DNA of 30,724 nt from a virus (Duplodnaviria > Caudoviricetes). The DNA is taken from the IMG/VR virus record IMGVR_UViG_3300027785_001015, positions 1 to 30,724 of that record; one strand, 5' to 3'. The position numbers were made by a program, and so were the translations under genes. The notes under the pieces are model-generated. The model made no database searches, was not told where the DNA came from, and saw nothing but the letters and a program-made list of their open reading frames with translations. This document shows positions 11,181-14,973 of this stretch, in pieces (the first letter of the stretch is position 1; each line of letters starts with the position of its first letter).

Positions 11181-11507
11181 CTACTCTATTGTAAACGCTG
11201 GAATAGGTACGTCAAGAGGCCAAACGTTTTGATCACAAAGTTTTGCAATTGTGGCTATGTGGGCATGATGCCATTTTTCTTGTCGTTCTTCCTTGCTTAA
11301 TTCTTTGCCTTGATCAATTTCGTAGTGACATTTAAGGCACAAAGCCGCCACTAAATTATCATCAGCCTTGACCCCTCGACCCTTACCGCCACCCCAATTG
11401 GTGTGAGCTGCCTGCACCATATTGCCCGACCCGCAAGCCTGGCAATCAAGTCCCGCCACCAGCTTTAGGAGTTTTTTGCTTCTGATGTATTGGTGTTTTT
11501 GGTACAA
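11181..11507 (-). CDS. HNH-like Zn-binding nuclease (DUF968/DUF1364-like)
   Basis: CQACG...QAAH...GKGRGVKADD...ALCLKCHYEID. Confidence 0.7.
   Translation of the reverse strand: MYQKHQYIRSKKLLKLVAGLDCQACGSGNMVQAAHTNWGGGKGRGVKADDNLVAALCLKCHYEIDQGKELSKEERQEKWHHAHIATIAKLCDQNVWPLDVPIPAFTIE
11188..11215 (-). promoter_or_regulatory. Sigma70-like promoter (putative late promoter)
   Basis: TTGACG-16 nt-TACAAT on the minus strand. Confidence 0.55.
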
Positions 11508-11631
11508 CTATGGTCTCCAGCGTGGTAAATCTATGTTCGTTAGCGCACTCTAAACGCCGCCGCCGTGTGTTTCCTCTTGAAGTTCTTGTTTCTTTTACGA
11601 TAGTCCAAGTCCCGCATTCGGGACATTTCAT
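11446..11631 (-). CDS. Zinc-ribbon protein (NrdR N-terminal/Ogr-Delta-like)
   Basis: MKCPECG...VKETR...RRRRLECANEHRFTTLE; ATG 11631 overlaps the upstream TGA. Confidence 0.7.
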   Translation of the reverse strand: MKCPECGTWTIVKETRTSRGNTRRRRLECANEHRFTTLETIVVPKTPIHQKQKTPKAGGGT

Positions 11632-11957
11632 TGGTGTGCCTTGTCTTGCATTCGGTTGGTTGCTTCTCGTGTTCGCCAAATCTCTATATCAAGCCTTGCC
11701 GCCTCAATTTCCCATTTCAGCGTTTCTTCTTTTTCAATTGCCGCAGCCAATCCCCTTAACAGCTTGGCATAAACAGGGTCTGCATATGCTTCCCTTTCTT
11801 GGGCGTTTGCCGCTTCAAAGCCCATCTCTAGGGCATCCCTCATCAACAAGGCTTTTTGGCTTTTGCGGAATTCTTCAAGGTAAACCCTTTGGGCTTTAGC
11901 TTCGCCGTAAGCTGGCGCTTTGTCTCTGATGGCTTGCGCCGCTTCTTCAGGTTTCAC
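11628..11957 (-). CDS. Conserved helical phage protein
   Basis: AKAQRVYLEEFRKS...AQEREAYADP...IEIWRTREA; coupled to its neighbours. Confidence 0.65.
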   Translation of the reverse strand: MKPEEAAQAIRDKAPAYGEAKAQRVYLEEFRKSQKALLMRDALEMGFEAANAQEREAYADPVYAKLLRGLAAAIEKEETLKWEIEAARLDIEIWRTREATNRMQDKAHQ

Positions 11958-12476: not shown

Positions 12477-12480
12477 TCAT
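12217..12480 (-). CDS. Hypothetical protein (protein-like N-terminal half)
   Basis: ANQLLDRHKE...ITRALALTGD; start overlaps the upstream TAA and stop overlaps the downstream ATG. Confidence 0.55.
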   Translation of the reverse strand: MNDRSQANQLLDRHKETRQLSYADITRALALTGDLEADGSEGMGSEIPQESERPWENQSIGMVVAGLLRYREAAWNSGSQRFTQENE

Positions 12481-12824
12481 TATCTGCCCCGCAACGCATC
12501 AAGTTTGGCTTTTATGTCCGCAGGCATTGGAACTGCCCTTGCACGGTCTTGGGCGATTTTTTCAAGGATATGGATGGTCTTTTTATCTTCAGGTATCTCA
12601 GCCCCATCCCATCGGCGTTGGTTAAGGTAAACAGCAGGTGAGGGTATATATGCACCGCCGTCTTTGCGCCATTGGTCGGTGGTTTTCATCCACTCAATGT
12701 GCTTGATTATTTGATCAATGCAGCTATCACAATAATACTTCTCCCATCGCTTAAGGCAATCAGACTTGCCGCCCTTGCGTGTGCTGATAGGCCAAGCTGC
12801 CCAAAATCGTTCGAAGTTTGTCAT
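12480..12824 (-). CDS. Replication protein resembling the C-terminal domain of phage replisome organisers/initiators
   Basis: FERFWAAWP..RKGGK...W...YIPSPAVYLNQRRWD; SD AAGGGG upstream of ATG 12824. Confidence 0.7.
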   Translation of the reverse strand: MTNFERFWAAWPISTRKGGKSDCLKRWEKYYCDSCIDQIIKHIEWMKTTDQWRKDGGAYIPSPAVYLNQRRWDGAEIPEDKKTIHILEKIAQDRARAVPMPADIKAKLDALRGR

Positions 12825-13237
12825 CTGTATCCCCTTATTGCTCTTTGGTGATTGTTGGAGCAAAGCACAGCCTTACCGTGGTCAAAACCAAAGTTCGCCT
12901 GTGCCTCGATGTTGCTCTTCGGAGCCATGTCATCGCATCGCACTATCTCAGACTGTTTCAACCACCGCGCTCTAAGACTTAGCCCACGCTCCCCGATTTG
13001 GTTTGCTCGTGTATCGGGGTATCTCAATCGCAACCATCGACGTACCGCATTGCGTTGTACAAAAGCAAAAACCCTACAAATCTCTCTGCGGTCTTGGCTC
13101 TTGGCGAGAGCAACAACAAGCGATTGAGGTGAATCAAAAGTTCGTTTGTCGTCTGACAAGACCGCACAAATATCTGTAGGGTTCAACGATCCACCTCTAT
13201 CGCCTAGATGCCACTCTAGACAGTTGTGAGTATACAT
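12821..13237 (-). CDS. Possible leader ORF spanning the structured RNA region
   Basis: 138 open codons starting 8 nt after the cro stop and ending in an ATGA overlap with the rep start. There is no SD and the protein looks atypical. Confidence 0.3.
   Translation of the reverse strand: MYTHNCLEWHLGDRGGSLNPTDICAVLSDDKRTFDSPQSLVVALAKSQDRREICRVFAFVQRNAVRRWLRLRYPDTRANQIGERGLSLRARWLKQSEIVRCDDMAPKSNIEAQANFGFDHGKAVLCSNNHQRAIRGYR
13061..13183 (-). ncRNA. C4/CI-like three-way-junction RNA / attenuator
   Basis: Closing stem 13183-13157 with 13096-13070 (25/27 pairs, including 2 G-U on the minus strand); internal hairpins with loops UUCACC and CGCCA; followed by a U-rich tail. Confidence 0.65.
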
Positions 13238-13244
13238 AATTTTT

Positions 13245-13400
13245 TTAGGTTGTAAACCACTCGGGTCTAAGGTCTCTGAGCTGGCGCATTCTCAACTCAG
13301 GTACGGTTTTCCACAAGCACACCGCCGCCCTAGAAATGTTCAATAGCCTAGCAAGCTCACTTTGTGAGCCTGCCAACTGAATTAATTCTTGTTTTGTCAT
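13245..13400 (-). CDS. Cro-like HTH regulator
   Basis: MTKQELIQLAGSQSELARLLNISRAAVCLWKTVPELR; TACAAT lies 6 nt upstream of the ATG, so the mRNA is probably leaderless. Confidence 0.85.
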   Translation of the reverse strand: MTKQELIQLAGSQSELARLLNISRAAVCLWKTVPELRMRQLRDLRPEWFTT

Positions 13401-13426: not shown

Positions 13427-13463
13427 AATAAGCGACATTAGGGAAAACACCTACAAATAATAC

Positions 13464-13492
13464 TTGACTGTGTGTTTAGTTGGCTTAACAAT
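13464..13492 (+). promoter_or_regulatory. Rightward early promoter containing operator 2 (13473-13490)
   Basis: TTGACT-17 nt-AACAAT; TGTTTAG-TTGG-CTTAACA matches the palindrome at 13 of 14 positions. Confidence 0.55.
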
Positions 13493-13538
13493 ACATCCAT
13501 GCCCCAGCAATTTCGCATAGGGTCTTTTAGGAGTAGTT

Positions 13539-13655
13539 ATGTTCGAGATAGAAACTTACAAAAAACCCATAAATTGGGCGCAAGTGTGCCTATGGATTGT
13601 CTCCATTACGGCTATTGTAGTGGTTGCTCTTGACGTTTTAGTATGGAGAGCATGA
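13539..13655 (+). CDS. 38-aa single-pass membrane protein (not in ORF track)
   Basis: AGGAG SD; MFEIETYKKPINWAQVCLWIVSITAIVVVALDVLVWRA; ATGA overlap with the next gene. Confidence 0.7.
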   Translation: MFEIETYKKPINWAQVCLWIVSITAIVVVALDVLVWRA

Positions 13656-14185: not shown

Positions 14186-14794
14186 ATGGAAACTTTTACA
14201 CCCATTCAAAAAAACATTGCTGCGGCATTTGTTAAGGCACAGCGCCAGTTTGGGCCAGCTCTAAAAACGTCTACAAACCCGCACTTTAAATCCAAGTATG
14301 CTGACCTAGCTAATTGCATTGAGGCGGTTATAGAGGCTTTAAACGCCAACGGTATTGGTCTTATGCAACGCACCTATGAATGCAAGGATGGTGTTTTGGT
14401 TGAGACCGTGTTTATCCATGAATCAGGTGAAGTCATGGAATGCGGAATGTTGCACGTTCCCGCTGGAAAACAAGACCCACAGGGTTACGGCTCGGCTTTG
14501 ACGTATGCCAGGCGGTACAGCCTTTTGGCAGCCACAGGTTTAGCGCCCGAGGATGATGATGCCAATGCAGCCAGCCGCCGCACAGAGATCAAATCTACGG
14601 TTAATGAAAGCCAAATAGCTGACCTACTGGCGGCAATGGATGAGGTGACCACCATCAAAGAGCTACAGCAAGCCTACAAAGACGCATACAAGGCGACAAA
14701 TGGCGAGCAGGCATGGCAGACCAAGGTCATCAACAAAAAAGACGCTAAAAAGTCGCAATTGGAAGCCACATTGTCAGCGGAGTTAACTAAATGA
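14186..14794 (+). CDS. erf: ERF-family single-strand annealing protein
   Basis: NPHFKSKYADL...DPQGYGSALTYARRYSL...EDDD. Confidence 0.9.
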   Translation: METFTPIQKNIAAAFVKAQRQFGPALKTSTNPHFKSKYADLANCIEAVIEALNANGIGLMQRTYECKDGVLVETVFIHESGEVMECGMLHVPAGKQDPQGYGSALTYARRYSLLAATGLAPEDDDANAASRRTEIKSTVNESQIADLLAAMDEVTTIKELQQAYKDAYKATNGEQAWQTKVINKKDAKKSQLEATLSAELTK

Positions 14795-14973
14795 ACGCAT
14801 TTCCTAACCCCAACCGCACCGACCAAACAGGCATGACCTTGCGTGACTACTTTGCGGCAAAGGCTGTGCAAGGTATTTGTGCAAGTGGGCCATCAGAGGA
14901 TTGGACTAACGACCAATTGGCGGCAGAAGCATATGAATTGGCAGACGCAATGTTAAAAGCGAGGGAAGCATAA
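14791..14973 (+). CDS. Small conserved phage protein
   Basis: GMTLRDYFAAKA...AYELADAMLKAR motif. Confidence 0.75.
   Translation: MNAFPNPNRTDQTGMTLRDYFAAKAVQGICASGPSEDWTNDQLAAEAYELADAMLKAREA

Follow-up and report, generated by a model that had tools for sequence, protein, structure and literature searches.

Plasmid attenuators of the pT181 and pIP501 type rely on an antisense RNA that acts on a leader and switches on a terminator upstream of replication functions, the antisense being a counter-transcript and the gated message that of rep. Among phages comparable control is described for P1 and P7 (C4 RNA) and for P4 (CI RNA). Immunity in P4, as described in PMC4825925 and PMC10111431, is a premature termination of transcription ahead of the replication functions that involves the seqA leader, the CI RNA and seqC, and the frame eta, coupled to an alpA-like gene and translated across CI, is described in PMC10111431 as preventing termination. 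The heteroimmunity of P1 and P7 is put down in PMC5320573 to a change in the loop code, and in PMC5737381 c4-2 figures as a distant homologue. Related sources are PMC2864571 with its supplements, PMC12197685, PMC10690425 and PMC11109978. In the literature consulted no description of the RNA considered here was found, and pieces of its motif may stand unnamed among the 10,006 IMG/VR-derived candidates of Fremin 2023 or in the Weinberg 2017 supplement.

The window (the whole stretch of DNA analysed, 30,724 nt) is an entire virus record of 30.7 kb. The genome is podovirus-like; besides a cro-like gene it has genes for terminase, portal, capsid, ERF, exonuclease and lysis. On its minus strand an initial annotation had placed a C4/CI-like switch with an upstream and a downstream target. 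As to the kind of switch, the branched RNA, the upstream target in its own transcript and the terminator-like end are all found, and the downstream target is not. The switch RNA is real and strongly covarying, a variant of the C4/CI kind with a non-coding module downstream. Its parts and neighbours, in the direction of transcription, are as follows.

13245 to 13400, minus strand: cro-like HTH gene (Pfam P22_Cro, 34 bits, cut-off 30)
13229 to 13256, minus strand: sigma-70-like promoter, TTTACA-16-TATACT, 10/12 match, predicted start about 13222-13221
12821 to 13237, minus strand: frame of 138 codons across switch and module 2, from the −10 box to the rep ATG (ATGA)
13201 to 13222, minus strand: 5' leader hairpin with constant GUGGCA loop; 5 of 8 pairs changed on both sides, loop invariant
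13188 to 13204, minus strand: upstream target (anti-guide), variable part 13196-13188, covarying with the loop across 48 codes
13157 to 13183, minus strand: closing stem, 5' arm; 8 of 22 consensus closing-stem pairs changed on both sides
13112 to 13153, minus strand: inner stem-loop with guide 13135-13119 and hypervariable core 13135-13127, from fold and covariation
13097 to 13111, minus strand: short hairpin whose CGCCA loop complements that of the leader hairpin; invariant, no covariation
13070 to 13096, minus strand: closing stem, 3' arm, from fold and covariation
13061 to 13071, minus strand: U-tract, UUUUUGCUU or similar, abutting the stem; predicted site of intrinsic termination
12825 to 13058, minus strand: module 2 (class A), non-coding, conserved and structured; compensatory changes at 14 of 55 pairs of a 40-sequence alignment
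12480 to 12824, minus strand: rep-like gene (rep-C), 114 aa, the C-terminal domain only of phage replication initiators (C-terminal match to PHROGs 9474/9327/270)

Other small elements lie nearby. Between cro and the ERF arm (13432-13580) there is a divergent promoter region with a terminator-like hairpin at 13579-13565 on the minus strand and no repressor gene facing cro; the arm that follows the switch has a small zinc-ribbon (NrdR/Ogr-like) gene at 11446-11679 on the minus strand, and in the ERF arm a small gene at 14791-14973 on the plus strand gives a weak regulator match.

The leader RNA and its covarying code

The promoter at 13256-13229 places the predicted start at the 5' hairpin, and so hairpin, target, branched domain and U-tract form one leader of about 160 nt; homologues have a TATAAT-like box at the place of the −10 box in the window. 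The proposed fold is borne out in each of its parts, that is the 27-nt arms of the closing stem (13183-13157 and 13096-13070), the inner stem with its UUGA-UUCACC-UCAA top, the GCUCU-CGCCA-AGAGC hairpin (13111-13097) and the U-rich tail (13071-13061), and the whole has a minimum free energy of −72 kcal/mol (z −4.27; 0 of 200 shuffles as good). The proposed upstream pairing, of 13204-13188 with 13135-13119, was checked base by base and comprises 16 of 17 positions, with two G-U pairs and one A-A. The assignment to the minus strand also has support, from the sigma-70-like promoter just upstream and from 74 G-U pairs among 815 leader:loop pairs; the plus strand of the switch folds well too (z −4.6), so folding by itself leaves the strand unfixed. 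The predicted terminator has a branched loop of about 60 nt and an interrupted U-tract, conserved internal mismatches interrupt the closing stem, and a simple terminator scan of the window did not call the U-tract site.

Covariation was assessed on 121 sequences, of which three are truncated and 118 were parsed, and these type I sequences contain 48 distinct loop cores of 7-12 nt. Core pairing averages −9.7 kcal/mol with the own (cognate) leader and −4.0 kcal/mol with foreign ones, the longest Watson-Crick run is 7.3 nt cognate against 3.7 nt non-cognate, the own leader is the best partner for 26 of the 48 cores, and in 100,000 permutations a match as good was never seen. Loop and upstream site therefore change together across the 48 codes, which is the covariation that the initial annotation had asked to see between loops and targets, whereas the downstream site gives no such signal. 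Within a 53-sequence alignment 16 of 50 stem pairs have changed on both sides (0 of 500 shuffles). The further contact claimed between leader hairpin and CGCCA loop is present as complementarity of UGGC (13213-13210) to GCCA (13105-13102), but these four pairs are invariant in 53 of 53 sequences and so offer no covariation within the family. Two type I copies, L242 and L259 (element 160 nt), have a body 12 nt longer with the reading frame kept.

The same slot can hold other RNAs. Among 80 loci with a rep-C relative 55 have the type I RNA, 8 are cut short upstream and 17 are others; 14 of the 17 are fully visible, and all 14 have another RNA there with the same plan of promoter, 5' hairpin plus target, long stem enclosing the complement, and U-tract. 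Three sister families, with covarying codes in this slot, are further uncatalogued leader RNAs. Type III (L317, L346 and others of L315-L394; 76 of 80 parsed) has 36 codes pairing at −7.7 kcal/mol cognate and −2.8 non-cognate, and type IV (L395-L444; 50 of 50 parsed, about 240 stretches) has 14 codes at −12.1 and −4.5 kcal/mol, with 0 of 100,000 permutations as good in either. In type III UGGU/ACCA replaces UGGC/GCCA and the variable contact is of 6-7 bp only. Type II (L244, L464-L481) is a relative of type I at 52 bits, and its covariation is weak, there being 5 variants only. The U-tract abuts the stem in examples of all four types. With the type I model the 21 type I genomes each give a single copy, and the 28 type III/IV genomes give no match. 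A type III copy, L377, has a loop mismatched to its leader (−0.8 kcal/mol) and is possibly a recombinant or an escape variant.

The region after the switch and the carrier genomes

The initial annotation had the switch gate rep, and in the window a rep-like gene does lie downstream, but a non-coding module follows the switch nearly everywhere and rep is often elsewhere or missing. In 130 of the 133 loci where a Shine-Dalgarno-led ORF of at least 55 aa was found (145 examined) the first such ORF begins at least 150 nt beyond the U-tract, and in nearly every case a gene-free stretch of 150-600 nt follows the switch. Within about 1-1.5 kb of the switch, 57 of 140 loci have rep-C downstream (type I, 43 of 53; type III, 5 of 53; type IV, 9 of 34) and 5 have it upstream, and in the other 78 it is not seen. 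Its 27 longer relatives are of 212-322 aa, some with DUF1376 or HTH_36, the nearest named cluster is Phg_2220_C, and no solved relative was found by sequence. A full initiator directly after the switch is seen at L411:1298-1768 on the plus strand, where an HTH_36 protein gene with internal repeats follows a type IV U-tract and module 2 is missing; a search for a second such case gave one of 98 type IV loci, which is the same contig as L411.

The module itself is structured. Class A, that of the window, has covarying hairpins and invariant loop motifs, with 282 G-U against 59 A-C cells in its alignment, and class B (23 sequences) has compensatory changes in 28 of 56 pairs; in both classes the pairing favours the transcribed strand. 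The window copy taken by itself folds no better than shuffles (z −0.9), and no Rfam match was found for module 2. At least 8 further module classes occupy the slot in relatives, and the classes mix freely with the switch types. By blastn against annotated phages and plasmids module B has one match only, the uncultured spring phage MW202484, in which rep-C precedes a type IV switch and module B. Module 2 is probably the gated product and is a candidate primer or origin RNA.

The carriers are a widespread group of uncultured freshwater phages. A 22-nt pattern matches the switch RNA at 120 IMG/VR loci, with about 310 stretches estimated, and 14 freshwater DNA runs contain 73-93% of the words sampled from the switch region. 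A looser gapped pattern gives mostly noise, with about 7 real variants among the 51 listed matches that lack the 22-mer; L008 and L164 match it on both strands at one place because the switch element is a long inverted repeat. A scan of 185,579 GTDB genomes gave 2 matches, one a chance 22-mer and the other a real element on a 2-kb MAG contig (L313), so no prophage or host was found there. Blastn of the switch element against annotated phages and plasmids gave no match, and the switch RNA was not found in any cultured phage. In metatranscriptomes assembled contigs of relatives cover the element in 3 of 4 RNA runs; these contigs show no ends and conserved regions recruit best, and so they are not counted as evidence of expression.

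The description of the phage as one with neither CI nor integrase is upheld by the 52 ORFs scanned in the window and by 50 long carrier genomes, 40 of them at least 90% complete. In these 50 there is no hit to integrase PF00589, S24 repressor PF00717 or ParA PF13614, with ERF as a control found in 31. Searches of the same genomes for replication proteins gave no PolA, no HTH_36 over cut-off, one DnaB and three DUF1376, and 47 of 50 have neither of the initiator families tested. In 8 whole genomes no primase, helicase, polymerase or initiator was seen among 300 of 343 ORF-cluster representatives, most ORFs being without a family and rep-C often being there.

With integrase, CI and ParA lacking from the 50 carriers, and mostly any initiator too, an RNA-primed origin becomes a live possibility. 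Module 2 would then be a ColE1-like primer or origin RNA in place of an initiator protein, the leader switch a same-strand, self-amplifying antisense gate, and the 6-12-nt code a means of sorting co-infecting phages into incompatibility groups without repressor, integrase or initiator. We hold this as a tentative proposal and on balance a doubtful one. Pointing to it are the non-coding slot, which in its one clear exception, L411, is taken by an initiator gene, a rep-C that has no DNA-binding half and can be upstream or absent, and the 47 of 50 genomes with neither initiator family. Split G-tracts of the GGGGTAGGGGGG type resemble the G-rich elements, at mitochondrial CSB2 and in ColE1, that promote R-loops according to PMC6056714; they occur on the transcribed strand of many modules, about 115-215 nt past the U-tract in L321, L323, L348, L376, L377, L382 and L396. 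Against it, type III modules are the only ones in which G-tracts are common (29 of 58 on the transcribed strand against 4 on the other), the counts being 5 of 61 for type I and 7 of 38 for type IV modules, and the module class of the window has none. DnaA boxes are not enriched in module 2 (14 of 145 loci, against 9 in downstream and 23 in upstream controls), no plasmid likeness was found by sequence, and three carriers (G002, G006 and G038) have a DUF1376 initiator elsewhere in the genome, G002 with DnaB as well, hinting at two replication modes. GC skew tracks gene direction and does not locate an origin.

Two folds and a proposed control of read-through and termination

Nascent folding was modelled as equilibrium folding of prefixes in 53 homologues, which is not a kinetic treatment. 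In such models the guide core, after the guide has emerged, is paired with the leader in 52 of 53 homologues, and in 42 this pairing persists to the point at which the upper stem could close; for the full-length RNA the closed-stem state is favoured in 52 of 53, with a mean advantage of about 13 kcal/mol. At emergence of the 3' arm the modelled probability of the upper closing stem is 0.18 with the leader free (above 0.5 in 8 of 53 homologues), 0.97 with the leader blocked (52 of 53), 0.92 with the variable target alone blocked (50 of 53) and 0.81 with foreign leaders (47 of 53), and from this difference the coded pairing specifically delays the stem ahead of the U-tract. The type I leader:guide helix, 15 bp long on average, invades the inner stem, and a few nucleotides separate the end of the target from the stem base.

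A reading frame crosses the switch. In the window its ATG at 13237 is 7 nt past the cro stop, and the frame from the −10 codon is open through the U-tract in 29 of 52 homologues, compared with 3 and 1 for the other two frames. With an open 5' part 29 of 34 stay open, against a permutation mean of 16.8 and a maximum of 26 in 20,000, although the homologues are related and not independent sequences and kinship inflates these reading-frame statistics. An open frame tends to have cro as its neighbour (17 of 23, against 9 of 29; Fisher p 0.005). The frame is closed or startless in 26 of 52 homologues, and the P4-type feature, a frame that runs across the RNA and is coupled to an HTH gene upstream, is present in about half. 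A conserved peptide was considered for the crossing frame and rejected, the core being read in different frames. The crossing frame is likely a read-through device.

The reading we prefer, with a probability of about 0.58, is a two-state leader RNA of the C4/CI kind, its loop matched to its own upstream site, which is likely an attenuator open by default and would be shut in trans by its own released RNA. Transcription is predicted to start at about 13222. The emerging guide would pair with the leader in a helix of at least 15 bp, trapping the 5' arm of the closing stem (the pairing seen in covariation, the folding modelled), with the result that the stem before the U-tract would come late and the polymerase would continue into module 2 and the rightward arm. 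Transcripts that close the stem would stop at the U-tract, and trimming of the leader could leave an RNA of about 120 nt displaying the CGCCA loop and the variable loop. By analogy with P4, this RNA may bind the leaders of new transcripts of the same code, whereupon the stem would form and termination be forced; more inhibitor would be made, expression would be self-limiting, genomes of the same code would be excluded and a changed code would escape. Along the longer transcript ribosomes arriving from cro might translate through the switch, the frame for this being present, and override it as vis-eta does in P4. The regulated product would chiefly be the non-coding module 2, probably tied to replication initiation. 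The closing of the gate in trans is suggested by P4 together with the diversity of the codes; the RNA does not have RNase P-type ends, and any route to a leader-free form is putative. Points against the model are the branched loop and interrupted U-tract of the predicted terminator, which the simple scan did not call, the invariance of the UGGC/GCCA contact, the homologues in which the frame is closed, and the lack of integrase and ParA in all 50 genomes, which makes a carrier state needing immunity hypothetical.

It is possible to do without a trans RNA, the leader:loop pairing then setting a kinetic or translation-coupled read-through in cis and the codes drifting neutrally by compensatory change. 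All of the computed support is for cis pairing, cofolding in trans being uninformative (cognate −3.7 against non-cognate −3.2 kcal/mol, by a method that cannot model kissing loops), and the selected reading frame offers a trigger in cis. This account is nonetheless unlikely: a 6-12-nt loop that takes 48, 36 and 14 codes on three unrelated scaffolds, while the stems on either side hardly vary, is what selection for specificity between genomes would be expected to give, and it is on such a change that P1/P7 heteroimmunity rests as described in PMC5320573.

Rather less probable again is that the two folds govern the processing or folding of the transcript and not its termination. A 27-bp stem has the shape of an RNase III substrate and might be cut by a nuclease of that sort, or leader pairing might decide the folding of a module 2 primer as RNA I does that of ColE1 RNA II. 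The stem exceeds what a terminator needs and conserves its internal mismatches, and module 2 is structured, predicted to be co-transcribed and has the ColE1 precedent (as described in PMC5043065). Yet the U-tract directly abuts the stem in examples of types I to IV, and because switch types mix freely with module classes specific folding contacts between switch and module are disfavoured.

A single stable RNA in a double pseudoknot, the leader docked on both loops and the whole with a structural or catalytic role of its own, would account for the conservation of both contacts and for a type III contact of 6-7 bp that makes stem opening unnecessary. It is very improbable given the 15-bp, inner-stem-invading helix of type I, a target that ends so close to the base of the stem tipped by the guide, and hypervariable codes that are unexpected in a catalytic core.

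Finally, the two-target scheme of the initial annotation, with a processed RNA acting upstream and downstream to gate rep as at P1 a2/b2 or P4 seqC, is scarcely tenable: the 9-mer claimed as its downstream site, GCGAUUGAG (13031-13023, minus strand), exists in the window, but a 9-mer complement of their own occurs in only 3 of the 113 homologues with enough downstream DNA, these being the window plus two copies nearly identical to it, the cognate run is 5.7 nt against 5.9 nt non-cognate (n=46), no second target site common to four whole genomes was found, and rep is often not downstream. The first bases of the 9-mer are the 3' arm of a covarying hairpin in module 2, and at the position of its A the module 2 alignment has U, A being rare there; 13023-13031 was accordingly rejected as part of the switch and is a chance match inside module 2.

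Attenuation by the preferred route would give freshwater phages that have no CI, integrase or ParA a plausible protein-free limit on their own early transcription and a means of kin exclusion. Specificity would reside in a short RNA code, readable from metagenomes and open to swapping in laboratory work, and the four natural scaffolds offer more than 100 candidate orthogonal leader/guide pairs for antisense-controlled termination. Were module 2 in truth to prime replication, a tailed phage would have an origin like that of ColE1, and the replication of these genomes without a recognisable initiator would be accounted for.

Comparison with described systems

Searches with the Rfam C4 models, which the initial annotation had called for, gave chance-level hits only and no match for the window, 20 type I, 16 sister and 4 further loci, while controls with RF01695 (clan CL00128) scored 68.8 bits for P1 and 74.9 for P4; the type I model R1 in turn finds no match in P1 and P4 at E<=1. 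Traits of C4/CI that are present are the three-way junction with a long closing stem and variable apical loop, and the two-part upstream target in nested order, of which the variable part covaries and the constant part is invariant. Absent are a downstream target (a2/b2, seqC), among homologues and four whole genomes, and a tRNA-like RNase P substrate, that is a GG(U/A) start with a short hairpin 5' of the guide stem. The switch RNA works like C4/CI and is uncatalogued, and since it fails the C4 model, is without RNase P ends, a second short hairpin and a downstream site, and has its stem joined to the terminator, it is not filed as a member.

In both P1 and P4 the order is hairpin-loop site, single-stranded variable site, apical variable loop and GCCA-like motif, as in the window. 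P4 is further alike in that its promoter lies within a frame preceded by a small HTH gene, and in having a branched RNA with a variable apical loop and then a short constant motif. Differences from P4 are that there is no match to Rfam C4/isrK (RF01394), that the leader abuts the stem here and is more than 100 nt away in P4, and that here the closing stem itself enters the U-tract, with no second hairpin with a UUCG-type loop and no downstream site. Integrase, primase and kil are not present here, and a structured non-coding module follows the switch.

With immI of P1/P7 the likeness is in the two-point recognition, a constant contact of the UGGC/GCCA type (UUGGCAG and UGCCAA in the Rfam consensus) and a variable specificity loop. 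The leader hairpin of the window is the counterpart of the P1 a1 hairpin-loop site, and the b1-like hairpin seen in Weinberg's a1b1 alignment (c4-a1b1, RF03163) recurs in sister type III. In contrast, C4 of P1 is a 77-nt RNase P product that starts GGU and represses icd-ant translation at a2/b2; the stem here starts AACCC and ends GGGUU followed by the U-tract, where P1 has GGUGGGG...GCCACC, the GCCA motif here has a hairpin of its own, and there is no downstream site, antirepressor or C1.

Likeness to ColE1 RNA I/RNA II, in so far as that system is described in PMC5043065, is that most carriers have no recognisable encoded initiator, that a long structured non-coding transcript would be under antisense control, and that variable loops could define incompatibility. 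RNA I is a counter-transcript, whereas the inhibitor here is predicted to come from the same strand. With attenuators of the pT181/pIP501 type the switch would share termination by an antisense-to-leader contact before replication functions.
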